This document shows positions 21,921 through 62,028 of a stretch of DNA of 64,000 bases, one piece after another (position 1 is the first letter of the stretch; each line of letters begins with the position of its first letter). Where the stretch lies: assembly GCA_016389475.1 (NCBI GenBank), contig GCA_016389475.1_3042.1. The stretch is one strand, 5' to 3'. Origin of the DNA: a phage. The translations under genes were made by a program, and so were the position numbers. The notes under the pieces are model-generated. The model had not been told where the DNA came from, searched no databases, and saw nothing but the letters and a program-made list of their open reading frames with translations.

Positions 21921-22301
21921 TCAATTAGAAAATAAATTTATCCAAGATTGTTCTTTAATTAAAAACGGCTCAGAATCATATGCCATTAAACTTTGCGTAA
22001 TTAATCCTTTAAAAGGTCCATCAATAAATTCCATGGTAAAATATGGAATTTTATTCATTAGCCGTGCATTAGGAGCAGTACATAAAACTCTGCATCCTTT
22101 GAATACACCTTTTTGTAATTTGTATTGCTTGGGATAAAATTCGCTCAAAATGTTATTATTTGCTAAAATTTCAAAATGATTCACCAATTTATTTTTAATA
22201 GTTTTTGGCGAAAAATAAAGATATTCGAAAAGTTGCGTATCTGTCATCATTGCATTCCAATTACGAAAAACTGCGGACGAGTAATACCACCAATACAGCA
22301 T
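21921..22301 (-). CDS. hypothetical protein
   Basis: Track ORF; start likely at an internal Met. Confidence 0.4.
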
Positions 22302-22837
22302 TTACTATTGCAGCAATATTGCACAGTTTCAATATGAATATCGTAAATTTTATCCATATCAGGAGATTTAACAGGCTCATCGATTATATACAAAATTCGA
22401 GAAAGCGATAAACCTCTGAACTTGCTACCTCTATTACCAACAAAACTACGGACAGAATCAGTAAATAAACGGAATCGAATATCATCGCTAGAATAACGAG
22501 AAAATTCTTTTTTAATGCGGCCCACAGAAATTTTAGCGTAAGCTGAAGTATTAGAAAGAACAATAACTGTTCCACCATCATACAACCAATTAGCGGCAAA
22601 ATTAGTTACTGCAGTTGATTTACCGGATTGTCTGCCACCATCTAAACGAAGTGTACAATATTCTTTAAATAAATACGACGAATCAGGTACATAAAATCCA
22701 CTATTACAAATTTCTTCTACTCTAGCGTCAGAATGGTGTGTAAAAGCATTCATCAGGGATAGATAAGGACCAGTTAAAAATGTTCTCATTTTATTCTCTC
22801 TAAATTTGGGCCATTCCATGGCGCATGAATTGTCCAT
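22247..22837 (-). CDS. P-loop-containing protein (196 aa)
   Basis: Walker A-like GGRQSGKST and hhhhDE (ILYIIDEP). Confidence 0.45.
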   Translation of the reverse strand: MDNSCAMEWPKFRENKMRTFLTGPYLSLMNAFTHHSDARVEEICNSGFYVPDSSYLFKEYCTLRLDGGRQSGKSTAVTNFAANWLYDGGTVIVLSNTSAYAKISVGRIKKEFSRYSSDDIRFRLFTDSVRSFVGNRGSKFRGLSLSRILYIIDEPVKSPDMDKIYDIHIETVQYCCNSKCCIGGITRPQFFVIGMQ

Positions 22838-22930: not shown

Positions 22931-23404
22931 TTATTTGAACGATTTAACGTACTGAATAGAACCTTTACTATTTACAAAGGCAATTTTACCATTTTTATTA
23001 TACATGGTAGCAGTACGCTGATAGCCATAAGTTTGCTTACCAGATTGATAACCAACTAATGCAAAATTATCTTCACCCATTTTATTCTGTTTAGCGCGAA
23101 TGCGTTCATGACCATGTGCCATAAGAACCTTAGCATCACCAGTTACAATGGATCGACGAGTTTTTTCATCTTCAACTGTATTAACAAAGTCGTCAAATGA
23201 ATCAAATTTAGCATGAGATTTATTATACAGTTTTCCATCTACTGCATAATTATATCCCTGTACATCCATCTCAACTTCTGTACCATCATCCAATACAGCA
23301 GTAATTTTCTGTCCTTTTTTAAATTTCAAAAGATCAGTAAAAGATTCAGCAATAATTTGAGAATTAATAGCTGCTTCAGTGATAAATTCTTGATATGTTT
23401 TCAT
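22931..23404 (-). CDS. capsid internal protein (IP family) with N-terminal capsid-targeting sequence
   Basis: N-terminus MKTYQEFITEA matches the T-even internal-protein CTS. Basic 157-aa protein at the ipIII/ipII position upstream of e. Confidence 0.65.
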   Translation of the reverse strand: MKTYQEFITEAAINSQIIAESFTDLLKFKKGQKITAVLDDGTEVEMDVQGYNYAVDGKLYNKSHAKFDSFDDFVNTVEDEKTRRSIVTGDAKVLMAHGHERIRAKQNKMGEDNFALVGYQSGKQTYGYQRTATMYNKNGKIAFVNSKGSIQYVKSFK

Positions 23405-26949: not shown

Positions 26950-27483
26950 TTATATCATGCTATTTAAGAGATGTAAACTATTTTTAATTTTACAAATTCG
27001 TTCAGCTTCTTCAACAGCGGCAGTGATAATGCTTTTAGCTATAGGAGTACTAATACTAGTAGCTTTTACACTTAACACGATTTCTTTATCTTTACCAGGC
27101 CAACCCCACGATTTTTCACCATGAGTGCCTTTAATTACAGCAGACACCTCAAGTGAGCATCCATTATCACATGTTTTTACATTAACAACCCAAGTGTCAC
27201 TTTTCTCAACCGGTTTATCCCAGTAAATATTGAGAATACGCGGGACATCAAATTTAGCAGGGCAAATCTTAACCGTAAGACCTTCGCTTTCTAGCCAATT
27301 AATAAGAGGACGTTCATACATGCGGCGATGTGGGCTTTGAACTCGACAAGCCTTGTACCCATTGCTTGCGGCTTCACTAAGCTCTTCTAATACCTGCTTT
27401 TGCATTATTGATAAGATACCATCAAAAGATTTTTCGGAAGTTTCATTCAGTTCGGTATAAAGAGACATAACAGTTTTCCTCAA
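26950..27483 (-). CDS. hypothetical protein (177 aa)
   Basis: Track ORF. Confidence 0.5.
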   Translation of the reverse strand: MRKTVMSLYTELNETSEKSFDGILSIMQKQVLEELSEAASNGYKACRVQSPHRRMYERPLINWLESEGLTVKICPAKFDVPRILNIYWDKPVEKSDTWVVNVKTCDNGCSLEVSAVIKGTHGEKSWGWPGKDKEIVLSVKATSISTPIAKSIITAAVEEAERICKIKNSLHLLNSMI

Positions 27484-27524
27484 ATTATAGGCTCATAATA
27501 TCTCAATCATGAGCCTATGTAAAC

Positions 27525-27800
27525 TTATTTCATATTATTGAAATATTCTTCTGCAATTTCGTCGTTATCATGATAAACTTTAGAAGACAGTTTAACATAA
27601 CCTTCAGCAGTGAACATGTTAATCACAACCTTTACAGTATACCACTGACCATCTTCATTACCCATTACTGCGTAAGTTTCAAACATCGGATGATCAGGAC
27701 CGATAACTTTAATATCATTCACTGTACGACCAAAATCTTCTGAAACACATTTCATAAAGAAGTTGAACAGTTCGCCGTAATTATCCATTTCATTCTCCAA
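27525..27800 (-). CDS. hypothetical acidic protein (91 aa)
   Basis: ORF preceded by an early promoter and GGAG SD. Confidence 0.5.
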   Translation of the reverse strand: MENEMDNYGELFNFFMKCVSEDFGRTVNDIKVIGPDHPMFETYAVMGNEDGQWYTVKVVINMFTAEGYVKLSSKVYHDNDEIAEEYFNNMK

Positions 27801-27824
27801 GTTGTTTTCTGTATCAGTAGTTGA

Positions 27825-27862
27825 TAGTTGTATAGTACCATGGAAGAACAGGGATGTAAACA
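27825..27862 (-). promoter_or_regulatory. early promoter (GTTTAC-N18-TACTAT)
   Basis: Minus-strand GTTTAC at 27860..27855; -10 at 27836..27831; shared leader TCAACTACTGA. Confidence 0.55.
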
Positions 27863-27990
27863 GTTTTGTGAAAAATTTTTTAAAAAGTTTTGGGGAATTC
27901 TAGGGCAAGGAGGGGAAATCAAAGGATAGGATAATATATTATAAAGGGTAGAAACTAAATGATGCCTAGAGAGGCCTGGAAAGGCCTAGA

Positions 27991-28022
27991 TACCAAAAAG
28001 CCCCAACCTTTTGGTCGGGGCT
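27991..28022 (-). terminator. rho-independent terminator (copy A of a duplicated hairpin)
   Basis: AGCCCCGACC-aaaa-GGTTGGGGCT hairpin followed by a U-run on the minus strand, just downstream of the 28030..28503 gene. Confidence 0.6.
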
Positions 28023-28029
28023 AAGAATG

Positions 28030-28503
28030 TTATTTGATTTGTTTAGCAGACCAAATGCGGTCTTTAATAATTTTTTGGATGTCTTCAACATACTCTAGGT
28101 CATGAGCATGTGGGTTATCTTTAAAGCTATGAGCACGAGCTAGCTTTTGGCCTTCAGTTTTGATTACTAAAAGCTCTTTAAGGATAGCTTCATATTTGGA
28201 GATAATTCCTTTAACGATATTTTTTTCTTGTGCGACTTTAGGATCTGCTTTAGGAGCAGGTTTACCCGAAGCCTTTGCAAAAGCAGCGCCAGTAGCAACT
28301 AAACTTTTCCAGGCCATACTAACTGCATTTCCCGTAAATCCTTCCGCTTTCATGTCGCGTGCGAACTGAAATCGCGATTCATCAGAAGCATCTTTGTAAG
28401 AATATTTACCCGCTGCAATGGCTGCTTTTGCGACAGCTTGAATTTCGGTGCTAGATGCTTCATTTAACACCGCTTCATTTAAAAATTGAGTATATGATTT
28501 CAT
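28030..28503 (-). CDS. internal-protein-like protein (157 aa) with CTS-like N-terminus
   Basis: N-terminus MKSYTQFLNEAVL resembles the MKTYQEF capsid-targeting sequence. Alanine/lysine-rich basic protein. Confidence 0.5.
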   Translation of the reverse strand: MKSYTQFLNEAVLNEASSTEIQAVAKAAIAAGKYSYKDASDESRFQFARDMKAEGFTGNAVSMAWKSLVATGAAFAKASGKPAPKADPKVAQEKNIVKGIISKYEAILKELLVIKTEGQKLARAHSFKDNPHAHDLEYVEDIQKIIKDRIWSAKQIK

Positions 28504-28544
28504 CTTATTTCCTGTTTTAATTCGTGGATTTAATATACTTATTT

Positions 28545-28577
28545 ATACTAAAAAGCCCCAACCTTTCGGTCGGGGCT
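28545..28577 (-). terminator. rho-independent terminator (copy B of the duplicated hairpin)
   Basis: Same hairpin as 27991..28022 (loop tttc instead of tttt), followed by a U-run on the minus strand. Confidence 0.55.
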
Positions 28578-28589
28578 AAGCCTTGCGGC

Positions 28590-28700
28590 AACCTTGTCGG
28601 GGTTCCACCTGCTAAGGCAAGTGTTTGTACGAAACGCCGGGATTCGAACCCGGTTATTAAGCAGTTGACGCTACTCAATATTTTTAAAAGGCCATATCTC
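28590..28700 (-). ncRNA. tRNA-like fragment or stable structured RNA
   Basis: Perfect T-arm (CCGGG-UUCGAAU-CCCGG) on the minus strand, but I could not pair a 7-bp acceptor stem or find a convincing anticodon arm. Confidence 0.25.
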
Positions 28701-28884
28701 GACCATATCCGAACGTTCCGTCAAAAACGCTACTCGGTTTACTGCAAAGATATTTCCTCGAATCGATAATTCGGTGCGCCGTTTCTGCTGTGATAGTAAA
28801 GAGCCAGAACACAGTAAAACTGTGGGAGGAAACTATACTCCAGGGAACATCAGTCCGACGACTTACCGGTAGCGACCCGGTTTC

Positions 28885-29235
28885 TTAGTATTCTTTTAAA
28901 GCATCAACCTGTTCACGACGTTTACGCCATAAATCAATTACTTCATACGCAGATTCAGCATTTCGAATTGGACGGCATTTATATAAAGACTTGTGATTTT
29001 GATATTGTGTAGATAACGGAATTTTATCTAAAAGGTCTTTACGTTCAAAATATTCGTAACCATCTAAACCAAATGAACGATTTTTGAGAAATTGCCAATG
29101 ACCAAATTCGTTTTCGACATAAACATAATCTGCATGCTGATAAAGCAAATTAATTACGCGTTCAGAAATAACAGTATCATTATGATTAAAATAGAATGTT
29201 AAATCATGAACTACTAAATAAACATTACCTTTCAT
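28885..29235 (-). CDS. hypothetical protein (116 aa)
   Basis: Track ORF between the tRNA-Arg gene and the structured RNA region. Confidence 0.5.
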   Translation of the reverse strand: MKGNVYLVVHDLTFYFNHNDTVISERVINLLYQHADYVYVENEFGHWQFLKNRSFGLDGYEYFERKDLLDKIPLSTQYQNHKSLYKCRPIRNAESAYEVIDLWRKRREQVDALKEY

Positions 29236-29253
29236 ATTTTCCTCACTTATAAT

Positions 29254-29329
29254 TGGTCGAGGCAGTAGGGATCGAACCTACGACCCAGGACTTAGAAGGT
29301 CCTTGCTCTTCCTTCTGAGCTATGCCCCG
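29254..29329 (-). tRNA. tRNA-Arg (anticodon TCT), CCA encoded
   Basis: Manually folded cloverleaf: acceptor CGGGGCA/TGCCTCG, D-arm GCTC/GAGC, anticodon loop CTTCTAA, T-loop TTCGATC. Confidence 0.8.
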
Positions 29330-29333
29330 TAAT

Positions 29334-29409
29334 TGGGGTGACCGATGGGAGTCGAACCCATGACTACGAGAATCACAATCTCGAGTTCTACCAACTGAAC
29401 TACGGCCAC
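29334..29409 (-). tRNA. tRNA-His (anticodon GTG), CCA encoded
   Basis: Acceptor GTGGCCG/CGGTCAC, anticodon stem CGAGA/TCTCG, loop TTGTGAT, T-loop TTCGACT, discriminator C. Confidence 0.7.
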
Positions 29410-29523
29410 ATTAATACCTACTCCAACAATCATGATGTCTTCACACGAAATTAAGAGAAGAGTGATCAGTTCAACCCCTATAATCGCGTCAAGTAGATAT
29501 TAATGTGACAGTTGTCACAAATT

Positions 29524-29598
29524 TGGCGGACGTGATAGGATTCGAACCTATAACCAATCGCTTAACAGGCGATCGCTCTGCCATTGAGCTACACATCC
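29524..29598 (-). tRNA. tRNA-Asn (anticodon GTT), CCA encoded
   Basis: Acceptor GGATGTG/CACGTCC, anticodon stem ATCGC/GCGAT, loop CTGTTAA, T-loop TTCGAAT. Confidence 0.7.
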
Positions 29599-29602
29599 AA
29601 AT

Positions 29603-29689
29603 TGGTGGGGAGTGATGGAGTCGAACCACCCGAGTCGCAATGACAATGAATTTACAGTCCACACCGCTACCTCTACGGGATAACTCCCC
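29603..29689 (-). tRNA. tRNA-Tyr (anticodon GTA), long variable arm, CCA encoded
   Basis: Acceptor GGGGAGT/ACTCCCC, anticodon loop CTGTAAA, about 15-nt variable arm, T-loop TTCGACT. Confidence 0.65.
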
Positions 29690-29701
29690 TAATTCATAAT
29701 T

Positions 29702-29776
29702 TGGTGGCCCTGGGTGGAATTGAACCACCATCTGGCGATTATGAGTCGCTTGCTTGAACCTTCCAGCTACAGGGCC
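29702..29776 (-). tRNA. tRNA with CAT anticodon (Ile-lysidine type as in T4, or Met)
   Basis: Acceptor GGCCCTG/CAGGGCC, anticodon loop CTCATAA, T-loop TTCAATT. Confidence 0.7.
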
Positions 29777-29777
29777 T

Positions 29778-29853
29778 TGGTGCTGATTGACGGAATCGAA
29801 CCGCCGACATCCTCATTACAAGTGAGGTGCTCTACCTACTGAGCTAAATCAGC
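29778..29853 (-). tRNA. tRNA-Thr (anticodon TGT)
   Basis: Acceptor GCTGATT/AATCAGC, anticodon stem CCTCA/TGAGG, loop CTTGTAA, T-loop TTCGATT. Confidence 0.8.
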
Positions 29854-29858
29854 AAAAC

Positions 29859-29948
29859 TGGCGGAGGCGATAGGATTCGAACCTATGAGTCGCCGGAGCG
29901 ACTGCCGGTTTTCAAGACCGGTGCATTCAACCACTCTGCCACGCCTCC
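29859..29948 (-). tRNA. tRNA-Ser (anticodon TGA), long variable arm
   Basis: Acceptor GGAGGCG/CGCCTCC, anticodon stem CCGGT/ACCGG, loop CTTGAAA, T-loop TTCGAAT. Confidence 0.8.
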
Positions 29949-29950
29949 AG

Positions 29951-30024
29951 TCTCCATACAAGGATTTGAACCTTGGACCTCCTGATCCCAAATCAGGCGC
30001 TCTACCAAACTGAGCTACACGGAG
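29951..30024 (-). tRNA. tRNA-Pro (anticodon TGG), no encoded CCA
   Basis: Anticodon stem CCTGA/TCAGG, loop TTTGGGA, T-loop TTCAAAT. Only 2 nt separate it from tRNA-Ser (Pro-Ser dimer arrangement known from T4). Confidence 0.8.
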
Positions 30025-30034
30025 TAAATTAAAT

Positions 30035-30108
<74 letters not shown>

Positions 30109-30113
30109 AAATT

Positions 30114-30200
30114 TGGTGCGAGAAGTGGGACTCGAACCCACAAGGAAATCATTCCGCAGCATTTTAAGTGCTGTGCCTTTACCAATTTGACCATTCTCGC
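30114..30200 (-). tRNA. tRNA-Leu (anticodon TAA), long variable arm, CCA encoded
   Basis: Acceptor GCGAGAA/TTCTCGC, anticodon stem CAGCA/TGCTG, loop CTTAAAA. Confidence 0.8.
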
Positions 30201-30201
30201 G

Positions 30202-30274
30202 CTGGGAATAAAGGATTCGAACCTTTGCATCCTGGAATCAAAATCCAGTGCCTTACCAACTTGGCTAATTCCCA
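30202..30274 (-). tRNA. tRNA-Gln (anticodon TTG), no encoded CCA
   Basis: Acceptor TGGGAAT/ATTCCCA, anticodon stem CTGGA/TCCAG, loop TTTTGAT. 1 nt from tRNA-Leu (Gln-Leu dimer arrangement known from T4). Confidence 0.8.
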
Positions 30275-30371
30275 ATTATTAACAAAGGCTCTTTAGCAAG
30301 AACCCTTGATGATAGAGGGTATTAATCAGTGCGGTATGAGTTAATAATAACAAATAATTCTTAAAGCATAT

Positions 30372-30659
30372 TTACCATTTATGATAATACATATTTACGA
30401 TGCATTCAAGATCTAAAGGATTCTTGAAAATATCATATTCAAGAGGACCTTTTTCTGTTTCAATAAAGAAATCAAAATTTACTGTATTAAATTTACGATC
30501 TTCCTTCACTAATTTAACTTGAGAAGATGAACGGTCAACATAAACCTTTTCAACTTCAAAACATGTTAAAACGCCATAATCATCAATCAAGGCTTTAGCC
30601 GCGTCTTGATCATATTTATATCCATTTTCAATGGACGATACTTTAGCATAAAGAATCAT
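30372..30659 (-). CDS. hypothetical protein (95 aa)
   Basis: Track ORF. Confidence 0.5.
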   Translation of the reverse strand: MILYAKVSSIENGYKYDQDAAKALIDDYGVLTCFEVEKVYVDRSSSQVKLVKEDRKFNTVNFDFFIETEKGPLEYDIFKNPLDLECIVNMYYHKW

Positions 30660-31305: not shown

Positions 31306-31590
31306 TTACAAAAGATTTTTAGCAATAATTTTAAGCTGAGCTACTGAAATATGCTTGGCTTTAAACAAAGCAGTTTCTTCAGCAGGGGAGATAACGATTG
31401 TAGCACCATCTTTCTTAGCGGACCATCCATCACCCAGGTAAACAGTACCTTTGACTTCTTCGCCATCAACCAGGCTAATCATCGGTTTACCTTCACGTCC
31501 TTTGTTTGCTTTAATAACTTCAGAAGTAAGGGTCGCTTCAGTCAAAGTAGAAGCGTTAGTGGTTGAAGTGAATTCTTGATAAGTTTTCAT
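31306..31590 (-). CDS. ipI: capsid internal protein (IPI-like) with capsid-targeting sequence
   Basis: 94 aa with N-terminus MKTYQEFTST; located between the tRNA cluster and 57B as ipI is in T4. Confidence 0.6.
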   Translation of the reverse strand: MKTYQEFTSTTNASTLTEATLTSEVIKANKGREGKPMISLVDGEEVKGTVYLGDGWSAKKDGATIVISPAEETALFKAKHISVAQLKIIAKNLL

Positions 31591-60125: not shown

Positions 60126-60550
60126 TGATTCTAATCCCTGAAACTCATGAATTAGTTCTCGAGAATGTCGAAGCACTTATTCCTGAAGCACAGGGTCGCT
60201 TTGACGAGTTGTCTTCTGCTTTAAATAAAGACGATATAAATAAAATTATCGAGAATATGCTTGATGATGAAACTGATTTAGCGGTTGCATTAGCTTCTAT
60301 TAATGAAAATATGCCGTTAAATGAATTTATCGTTAAACATGTTTCTGCCCGTGGTGAAATTACTCGCACTAAAGATCGCAAAACCCGCGAACGTAATGCA
60401 TTTCAAACTACCGGGTTGTCTAAAGCAAAACGTAGACAAATTGCTCGTAAAGCTACCAAAACGAAGATTGCCAATCCAGCAGGTCAATCTCGTGCTCAGC
60501 GTAAGCGTAAAAAAGCTCTTAAACGCCGTAAAGCATTAGGATTAAGCTAA
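60125..60550 (+). CDS. 68: prohead core protein gp68
   Basis: 141 aa as in T4; basic C-terminus. Confidence 0.8.
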
Positions 60551-61188
60551 TGAATGAACCCCAATTGCTAATTGAAACTTGGGGTCAACCTGGCGAAATT
60601 ATTGATGGTGTGCCAATGCTTGAATCTCATGATGGAAAAGACTTAGGTTTAAAACCTGGTTTATACATCGAAGGAATATTTATGCAAGCGGAAGTCGTCA
60701 ATAGAAATAAACGTCTTTATCCAAAACGTATATTAGAAAAAGCGGTAAAAGACTATATCAATGAGCAAGTTTTAACTAAACAAGCTCTCGGAGAATTAAA
60801 TCATCCTCCACGCGCTAATGTTGACCCGATGCAAGCCGCTATCATTATAGAAGATATGTGGTGGAAAGGAAATGACGTATACGGACGAGCTCGTGTTATT
60901 GAAGGTGACCATGGTCCTGGAGATAAATTAGCAGCTAATATTCGTGCCGGATGGATTCCAGGAGTTTCTTCTCGTGGATTAGGTTCATTGACTGACACAA
61001 ATAAAGGTTATCGTATCGTAAACGAAGGATTCAAATTAACTGTAGGTGTTGATGCAGTATGGGGTCCAAGTGCTCCAGATGCATGGGTAACTCCTAAGGA
61101 AATTACAGAATCACAGACGGCGGAAGCCGATACAAGTGCCGATGACGCCTATATGGCTCTCGCAGAGGCCATGAAAAAAGCGTTATAA
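60550..61188 (+). CDS. 21: prohead protease gp21
   Basis: 212 aa as in T4. Confidence 0.9.
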   Translation: MNEPQLLIETWGQPGEIIDGVPMLESHDGKDLGLKPGLYIEGIFMQAEVVNRNKRLYPKRILEKAVKDYINEQVLTKQALGELNHPPRANVDPMQAAIIIEDMWWKGNDVYGRARVIEGDHGPGDKLAANIRAGWIPGVSSRGLGSLTDTNKGYRIVNEGFKLTVGVDAVWGPSAPDAWVTPKEITESQTAEADTSADDAYMALAEAMKKAL

Positions 61189-61218: not shown

Positions 61219-62028
61219 ATGCTTAAAGAACAACTGATTGCCGAAGCGCAGAAAATTGATGCTTCCGTTGCTCTTGATAGTATTTTCGAATCAGTTAATA
61301 TTTCTCCGGAAGCAAAAGAAACTTTCGGCACTGTATTCGAAGCTACCGTCAAGCAGCACGCCGTTAAATTAGCTGAATCTCATATCGCTAAAATTGCTGA
61401 AAAAGCAGAAGAAGAAGTAGAAAAAAATAAAGAAGAAGCAGAAGAAAAAGCTGAGAAGAAAATCGCTGAGCAAGCTTCTAAATTCCTTGACCATCTTGCA
61501 AAAGAATGGCTCACTGAAAATAAATTAGCAGTAGATAAAGGCATCAAAGCCGAACTGTTTGAATCCATGCTTGGTGGATTGAAAGAGCTCTTCGTTGAAC
61601 ACAACGTTGTTGTTCCAGAAGAATCAGTTGATGTTGTAGCTGAAATGGAAGAAGAACTGCAAGAACACAAAGAAGAATCAGCTCGTCTGTTCGAAGAACT
61701 CAATAAGCGTGACGCATATATCAATTATGTGCAGCGTGAAGTGGCATTGAGCGAAAGTACTAAAGATCTGACTGAGTCTCAAAAAGAAAAAGTCTCTGCT
61801 CTGGTCGAAGGTATTGATTATTCAGATGCATTCTCAAGCAAATTGAGTGCCATCGTAGAAATGGTGAAGAAATCTAATAAAGATGAAAGCACTATTACTG
61901 AGAGTATAAATACTCCTGATACTGAAGCAGCCGGACTGAATTTCGTCACTGAAGCTGTAGAAGATAAATCTGCGCAAGGTGCAGAAGATATTGTAAGTGT
62001 ATATGCGAAAGTCGCATCTCGTTTCTAA
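61219..62028 (+). CDS. 22: prohead scaffold core protein gp22
   Basis: 269 aa, highly acidic coiled-coil, as in T4. Confidence 0.9.
   Translation: MLKEQLIAEAQKIDASVALDSIFESVNISPEAKETFGTVFEATVKQHAVKLAESHIAKIAEKAEEEVEKNKEEAEEKAEKKIAEQASKFLDHLAKEWLTENKLAVDKGIKAELFESMLGGLKELFVEHNVVVPEESVDVVAEMEEELQEHKEESARLFEELNKRDAYINYVQREVALSESTKDLTESQKEKVSALVEGIDYSDAFSSKLSAIVEMVKKSNKDESTITESINTPDTEAAGLNFVTEAVEDKSAQGAEDIVSVYAKVASRF

Follow-up and report, generated by a model that had tools for sequence, protein, structure and literature searches.

A stretch of phage DNA of 64,000 nucleotides (nt) (NCBI GenBank assembly GCA_016389475.1, contig GCA_016389475.1_3042.1), referred to below as the window, was found to contain, between the minus-strand genes rnaC and e.8, an open reading frame (ORF), here called gene A, that lies between two copies of one terminator hairpin. 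This arrangement is likely to be a self-contained late cassette for a previously unannotated internal protein (Ip) that is packaged in the phage head and injected; in the same interpretation the site is a third Ip locus, and its content is exchanged at the duplicated terminator. The parts of this interpretation differ in strength. That the slot is a hairpin-delimited presence/absence cassette is highly probable, and packaging and processing of the gene A product in the head are predicted from its leader with good confidence. That the protein inhibits a restriction or other defence system is an argument from analogy, quite possible but on balance doubtful. The window can be assigned to Tequatrovirus because its sequence shares 99.9% identity with the Escherichia phages vB_EcoM-BECP11 and NBEco003, and ~96% with RB51 and RB68.

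The repeat that flanks gene A is direct and 36 nt long, with 34 of the 36 positions identical between the copies and a spacing of 555 nt, and it was the sole repeat family found nearby. Its 31-nt core occurs exactly twice in the window when up to three mismatches are allowed. Read on the minus strand, each copy has the form of a strong intrinsic terminator, with a 10-bp stem that contains seven G-C pairs, a 4-nt loop and a T-run. Inside the hairpin they differ at one loop base only (AAAA versus GAAA, minus strand); the other mismatch is found directly beyond the T-run, on its 3′ side in the same strand (27994/28549), and the longest perfect block common to both copies is 17 nt. A preliminary description of this DNA had placed near-identical terminator hairpins, differing only in the loop, on either side of the gene; this was borne out, and the positions that it gave (27991..28022 and 28545..28577) were right to within a few bases, though neither the strand nor the late promoter figured in it.

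The upstream copy is followed at once by a T4-type late promoter, the octamer TATAAATA, only seven examples of which occur on the minus strand of the window. Among the 12 surveyed Tequatrovirus loci with gene A or one of its variants, 10 kept this promoter in the same position, others had octamers that match it at 7/8 bases, and the depositors of the SA20RB record had independently annotated the same site as a late promoter. The cassette starts 47 nt downstream of rnaC, which is the final gene of the tRNA/small-RNA operon. From this layout, gene A would be expressed late, on a monocistronic mRNA insulated by terminators on both sides. Selection on the gene was estimated from ten alleles of 157 amino acids (aa), which gave a mean nonsynonymous divergence (dN) of 0.013, a mean synonymous divergence (dS) of 0.26 and a ratio of ~0.05, the corresponding ratio for e.8 being 0.02; gene A is therefore a real gene under strong purifying selection. 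With the same ratio, diversifying selection was rejected at the level of alleles. The diversity of gene A stems from cassette replacement and not from point substitution.

In T4, the site is empty. The T4 intergenic stretch between e.8 and rnaC holds no gene and exactly one copy of the hairpin, which serves as the rnaC terminator; its flank on the e.8 side continues the window's downstream copy, and its flank on the rnaC side continues the upstream copy. No late promoter stands behind the T4 hairpin (TTTTTGGTATCTAAG, versus TTTTTAGTATAAATA in the window). The window differs from T4 by one 555-nt unit, which brings in gene A with its late promoter and an additional hairpin copy; the points at which the two genomes part lie inside the repeat, and gene A is the only gene that the unit holds. 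Since T4, as well as PST, RB3 and others, does without gene A, the gene is dispensable.

The T4 junction was searched against 50,697 phage records, and the locus was found in 699; 37 sampled records cover the whole junction. Nine of these were uninterrupted, whereas 22, four and two carried an additional 555, 685 and 1,233 nt, respectively. The slot is empty in T4, RB3, PST, G2540-3, JE01, phage 132 and phi25-307, and it is occupied by gene A alone (the +555 class) in the window, RB68, G4507, SA20RB and Sf21. RB51, AR1 and BECP11 are further carriers of gene A. A second gene, gene B (187 aa, starting MKTYAEFLTEA), is found alone (the +685 class) in RB14 and SP1. In HP3.1, SCS4 and the loci L010 and L016, which make up the class with the largest insert, gene A is followed by gene B, with a hairpin before A, a hairpin between the two genes and a related terminator after B. 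The terminator downstream of gene B (L005:775-815 in HP3.1, and its equivalent in RB14) has a different stem, CCCTATC/GATAGGG, its only match to the common hairpin being GGGCTTTTTGGTATC; this may point to an ancient crossover located in the descending stem and the T-run. By tblastn over phage records, gene A or a relative was found in 512, gene B in 165 and e.8 in 597, so that the empty state of T4 is the minority state.

Dhakavirus-type loci (IME341, IME281 and JS98-like) carry A-like genes of 154-205 aa and/or another gene, ORF184, flanked by copies of their particular form of the hairpin, and in several of them the repeated unit is the hairpin together with TATAAATA. The product of ORF184 (L014:1645-2199 and L018:1645-2199; Dhakavirus) is an unrelated membrane-like protein of 184 aa that begins MKLLKYLSWILLVPLDF..., belongs to PHROG 2143 and is called a holin in one record. 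It has no capsid-targeting leader and yet sits between the same units of hairpin and late promoter; the slots are therefore not restricted to Ip-type cargo. Comparison with related phages for the presence or absence of the gene, which the preliminary description had proposed, thus revealed a variable rnaC-e.8 locus that may be empty or may hold A, B, A and B, or unrelated cargo.

Neighbour-joining trees were built from 20 loci for the e.8 side and for the rnaC side of the slot; segments of unequal length account in part for the deep split seen in the tree of the rnaC side. Occupancy states were interspersed on both trees, with T4 (empty) beside RB14 (B), G2540-3 (empty) beside SA20RB (A), and phage 132 (empty) paired with SP1 (B), a phage of the same species. 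This scatter among close relatives implies repeated loss, gain or exchange, and since the two trees also disagree with each other, the region around the slot must be mosaic. The idea put forward earlier, that direct repeats around a single gene reflect insertion or exchange by homologous recombination, agrees with both the one-hairpin empty site of T4 and the distribution of at least four occupancy states over the flank trees. Family members hold the same position in distant genera; in Klebsiella Jiaodavirus, a syntenic member lies right after the tRNA cluster and before homologues of e.8 and e.6. For this reason the filled slot is probably ancestral, and the empty site of T4 probably arose when the DNA between two hairpin copies was deleted.

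Gene A, gene B and ORF205, a 205-aa gene of IME281-type phages, each match PHROG 2280 ("unknown function") over their full length. When A and B were compared directly, by BLASTP or by hhalign of a shallow A-family profile against B, only the leader aligned. ORF205 bridges the two, with 26% identity to A (E = 8e-9) and 25% to B (E = 3e-4). A and B are accordingly regarded as highly diverged paralogues, a relationship accepted only by way of PHROG 2280 and the bridging ORF205. A profile search of 1.8 billion representatives returned 13 hits with E <= 0.001, and those that are named all come from T4-like phages; the gene family is narrow and has no outside link.

The common domain layout of these three genes, with their full-length family matches and the bridge between A and B, would also fit a relic of tandem duplication, in which an ancestral unit of hairpin, late promoter and gene was copied and gave rise, by divergence, to A and B. 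On this view the repeat would have arisen as a side effect of family expansion and of the need of each gene for a terminator, rather than as a device for insertion or exchange, and the repeated unit of the IME281/JS98-like Dhakavirus loci does include both hairpin and TATAAATA. We consider this unlikely, since the unrelated ORF184 occupies the same hairpin-bounded slots, the terminator after gene B has a stem of its own, and empty, single and double states scattered among close relatives call for repeated loss, gain or exchange. The duplication account complements that of an exchangeable cassette more than it excludes it.

Evidence for the destination of the protein comes from its N terminus, which had been described as capsid-targeting-like. 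For T4, ten residues of the IPII/IPIII leader MKTYQEFIAE/A (slashes before A mark cut sites), the capsid-targeting sequence (CTS), are alone sufficient for the packaging of foreign proteins, and amber-suppressor mapping in IPIII assigned positions 4 and 7 to targeting and positions 8 and 10 to processing (PMC9026906). The gp21 protease cleaves after L/I-x-E (PMC9026906, PMC3012670). The gene A leader, MKSYTQFLNEA, retains all four mapped residues (Y4, F7, L8 as the L/I residue, and E10) and the Ala that follows, so that the description matches the positions mapped in T4. Two protease sites are predicted in tandem, L8-N9-E10/A11 and L13-N14-E15/A16; the second was created by a 15-nt tandem duplication at 28459..28488 (minus strand), in which TTAAATGAAGC occurs twice at 15-nt spacing. 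Dhakavirus-type alleles do not have this second site. An aromatic residue at position 4 and Phe7 are kept in close family members and in most of the distant ones; in some distant members, the residue aligned with position 4 is a different one, or an indel shifts the alignment. The leader motif as a whole persists, in distant members from Yersinia and Klebsiella phages too, while the bodies of the family proteins fall to 25-40% identity. A six-frame motif scan of the window picked out two genes only, gene A and the one of the ipIII locus (22931..23404); the window's ipI carries the longer Ip1-type leader.

Cleavage by gp21 is predicted to leave a mature N terminus of AVLNEASSTEIQAVAK or ASSTEIQAVAK and a mature protein of 15.5-16 kDa with an isoelectric point (pI) of 9.4-9.5, compared with 9.0-9.65 for T4 Ip1-3. 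An AlphaFold model had a mean predicted local distance difference test (pLDDT) score of 74, with values of 80-91 for the domains and below 50 for leader residues 4-15, which are thus modelled as disordered. The modelled layout consists of the leader, a helical N-domain (residues ~18-75), a disordered Pro/Lys/Ala linker (76-87) and a C-terminal helical hairpin (88-154). At the level of sequence, the predicted protein has every attribute of a T4-type internal protein.

In the mechanism that we propose, the upstream hairpin would stop transcription of the tRNA/rnaC operon, and TATAAATA behind it would drive a monocistronic late mRNA of ~550 nt for gene A, ending at the downstream hairpin copy before e.8 is reached. 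The leader MKSYTQFLNE/AVLNE/A (10-15 residues) would attach the protein to the prohead core formed by the gp22 scaffold, and gp21 would cut it after Glu10 and/or Glu15, so that a basic helical protein of ~15.5-16 kDa would be left in the head and later injected with the DNA. Unequal or intramolecular recombination between hairpins would delete or add units, in the manner of the PeSL elements discussed below, and ordinary crossovers in the rnaC and e.8 flanks, which are conserved, would spread alleles between co-infecting phages. The role of the protein may be the inhibition of a host defence at the time of DNA entry; by analogy, the likeliest target would be a variant from the GmrSD-type group of type IV restriction enzymes.

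Several points weigh against this interpretation. Perfect identity over 17 nt is short for efficient homologous recombination in T4, and alleles may therefore be exchanged mainly by way of the long flanks, the hairpin being only a historical breakpoint. At the syntenic homologue's locus in Klebsiella Jiaodavirus, the upstream hairpin is present and no downstream copy was detected, so that the repeat is a feature of the sampled coliphage T-even genera (Tequatrovirus and Dhakavirus-type loci) and does not extend to the entire family. No sequence or fold similarity between gene A and Ip1, Ip2, Ip3 or any characterised inhibitor emerged from Pfam (no family above threshold), PADLOC (no match), the PDB (best E = 2.2) or BFVD (no fold match beyond its own family), which makes the proposed function a matter of pure analogy; since Ip1-3 are themselves mutually unrelated, this lack of similarity is no argument against an analogous function. 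The leader is identical to the T4 CTS at just 6 of 11 positions, differing at S3, T5, Q6, L8 and N9. No proteomic report of the gene A protein in virions was found in the literature, and all database records label the protein hypothetical.

The limited identity of the leader, the missing proteomic report, the hypothetical labels and the absence of a CTS from the neighbouring cargo ORF184 are also what could be expected of an unpackaged late accessory protein acting in the cytoplasm, for example in assembly, lysis timing or superinfection exclusion. The resemblance to a CTS would then reflect shuffling of leader DNA among loci, or constraints on translation initiation. Such a role is quite improbable, given that the four CTS positions mapped in T4, and Ala behind the Glu of the cleavage site, are kept across genera in spite of the divergence of flanking residues and protein body. 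Moreover, the leader is predicted to be disordered and separate from the folded domains, the duplicated L-N-E/A site makes sense only for a propeptide that is removed, and ten CTS residues are enough for packaging in T4. A packaged internal protein remains the preferred reading of the leader. As to the repeat itself, chance or convergence between two independent strong terminators, for which GC-rich stems, GNRA-like loops and T-runs as a common design might speak, is effectively refuted, because the identity extends to non-structural bases (on the minus strand, CTTA before the stem and GTAT after the T-run), none of 100 shuffled sequences matched the 31-nt core, and the copies are alike within each genome whereas the stem sequence changes from genus to genus (GCCCCGACC for Tequatrovirus, GGCCCTTCC for the Dhakavirus-type loci of IME341 and IME281). 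Mobility by a homing endonuclease of the seg/mob type was likewise rejected; the 555-nt unit contains no nuclease gene, and segB is absent from the tRNA region of the window.

The features of the cassette and its surroundings are listed in Table 1. On the minus strand, the gene order, read against annotated RB68, G4507 and T4, is 1, 57A, 57B, ipI, trna.4-.2 and eleven tRNAs, followed by a 116-aa ORF, rnaD, rnaC, gene A, e.8, e.6 and so on down to e. The early-type promoter of e.8 fits the promoter consensus of the PeSL elements of PST and T4, TTTACW-N17-TAYWAT (PMC4122927), and the equivalent site is annotated as a T4 early promoter in the SA20RB record. The head genes for gp20, the gp21 protease, the gp22 scaffold and gp23 all lie within the window.

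Table 1. Features of the gene A cassette, its borders and the head genes involved in the proposed processing
Feature	Coordinates	Strand	Remarks
rnaC (species 1 RNA)	28628..28766	-	97% identity over 139 nt to T4 rnaC; annotated rnaC in RB68
Upstream repeat copy	28545..28580	-	Hairpin 28554-28577, GAAA loop and T-run; RNA fold -20.3 kcal/mol, z = -4.5
T4-type late promoter TATAAATA	28540..28547	-	Exact match; 3 nt past upstream T-run; 36 nt before ATG
Shine-Dalgarno-like AGGAAA	28508..28513	-	5-10 nt upstream of ATG; read from sequence
Gene A, Ip-like, 157 aa	28030..28503	-	PHROG 2280 (E = 4e-60); starts MKSYTQFLNEA
Leader, codons 1-15, MKSYTQFLNE/AVLNE/A	28459..28503	-	CTS-like, with tandem L-x-E/A sites; CTS rules from PMC9026906
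Downstream repeat copy	27990..28025	-	Hairpin 27999-28022, AAAA loop and T-run; RNA fold -19.5 kcal/mol, z = -3.8
Early-type promoter for e.8	27832..27860	-	TTTACA-N17-TACTAT with upstream TG; 139 nt past downstream hairpin
e.8, conserved downstream border of the slot	27525..27788	-	96.6% identity to T4 e.8
gp21 prohead protease	60550..61188	+	Pfam Peptidase_S77, E = 1.5e-111
gp22 scaffold, after gp21 gene	61219..62028	+	Pfam T4_CASP, E = 3e-90; strand as gp21

Further differences from T4 were seen near the slot. The 116-aa ORF (28885..29235, minus strand; PHROG 3355, unknown function) lies between rnaD and tRNA-Arg, which abut each other in T4, where the ORF is missing; it is a second presence/absence difference within the tRNA/rnaC operon, and among the sampled phages its presence is independent of gene A. 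The tRNA cluster (29254..30274, minus strand) has 11 genes (Arg, His, Asn, Tyr, Met, Thr, Ser, Pro, Gly, Leu and Gln) versus eight in T4, with an unexplained gap of 114 nt (29410-29523) between tRNA-His and tRNA-Asn. An Rfam scan of 27400-30500 returned tRNAs only, with nothing for the hairpins, rnaC or rnaD. rnaD (28773..28885, minus strand) is 79% identical to its T4 counterpart, against 97% for rnaC. In a 2025 paper, a T4-like phage evolved on ECOR34 repeatedly gained one single-nucleotide polymorphism in rnaD, which was left unexplained (PMC12685909); this gene lies just upstream of the cassette slot. At the ipII/ipIII locus next to e, a single leader-bearing gene (22931..23404, minus strand; 157 aa, starting MKTYQEFITEA; PHROG 3155, "internal virion protein") stands in place of the ipII and ipIII genes of T4. 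No denV-like ORF is adjacent to it; the place of one is taken, in 21921..22837 (minus strand), by a 196-aa ORF (PHROG 1488) with a weak terminase-ATPase-like match.

A wider reading is that the slot is a third T-even Ip locus that went unrecognised because it is empty in T4, a late-promoter counterpart of the PeSL elements that supplies injected inhibitors of defences not yet matched to one; we advance this tentatively, and it is more doubtful than the cassette itself. If it were right, the units of hairpin and late promoter might act as docking slots whose cargo is loaded into the head by way of the shared leader, a notion that is equally speculative. The targets of A, B and ORF205 could then be, for instance, further variants of GmrSD- or BrxU-type type IV restriction, again a doubtful proposition. 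A third Ip locus and a widespread unannotated PHROG 2280 family would offer candidates for pairing orphan defence systems with their inhibitors, and genes A and B may help to explain differences in host range among therapeutic Tequatrovirus isolates. The empty site of T4 is also a natural, transcriptionally insulated slot for cargo provided with a capsid-targeting leader.

Among known systems, the internal proteins of T4 are the closest in kind. Ip1 (IPI*), Ip2 and Ip3 are, like the predicted gene A product, small, basic, late and non-essential, are encoded in polymorphic loci and carry a leader of the common form MK(T/S)(Y/F)xxF(I/L)xE/A. The mature part of the gene A protein has no similarity to them, and the Pfam family IPI_T4 matches the window's own ipI (31306..31590, E = 1e-51) and not gene A. 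Each of the three T4 proteins is specific for one GmrSD-type type IV restriction enzyme, which it inhibits, and every gene of the "two Ip loci" was proposed to act against some variant of the GmrSD system (PMC12373910); Ips share the leader only and are otherwise diverse anti-defence proteins (PMC3012670). Leader-bearing ORFs of T-even phages vary in number, order and identity, at least ten Ips having been reported, and shuffling of the Ip palette has been proposed to alter host range (both as given in the citing papers PMC4122927 and PMC12373910). The remark in the preliminary description that Ip loci are hypervariable and that one Ip counters host restriction is in keeping with this literature, in which all three T4 Ips inhibit GmrSD variants. 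The review of Petrov et al. 2010 does not mention internal proteins. The work of Repoila et al. 1994 reportedly concerned the ipI and ipII/ipIII loci. The gene A site between rnaC and e.8, empty in T4, is not among the two Ip loci of the current literature (PMC12373910), though it might be mentioned in Repoila et al. 1994.

Terminator/promoter cassettes are known to mediate insertions and deletions in T4-type phages (PMC2839356, PMC4122927). In the PeSL elements (Arbiol et al. 2010; Comeau et al. 2014), repeated terminator stem-loops with promoters likewise flank single accessory ORFs; in RB49, ORF192 lies between two such elements, whereas phi1 has one element and no ORF (PMC2839356, PMC4122927), which is exactly the topology of the pair formed by the window and T4. 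Recombination between flanking elements, with excision and insertion of mini-circles, was proposed as the mechanism, and mini-circles were detected experimentally (PMC2839356, PMC4122927). The PeSL authors themselves drew a connection between this behaviour and the polymorphism at Ip loci described by Repoila et al. 1994 (PMC4122927). The present repeat differs in composition. A PeSL is a composite of a stem-loop and a sigma-70-like early promoter, whereas here the 36-nt terminator alone is repeated; the upstream copy is joined to a late promoter (TATAAATA), and the e.8 early promoter lies outside the repeat, 139 nt from the downstream copy. The term "late promoter" does not occur in the 2010 paper (PMC2839356), and the available sections of the 2014 paper describe only early (PeSL) and middle (PmSL) forms (PMC4122927). 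The cassette mechanism is already known; what the present case adds is an unannotated gene family and a probable further Ip locus.

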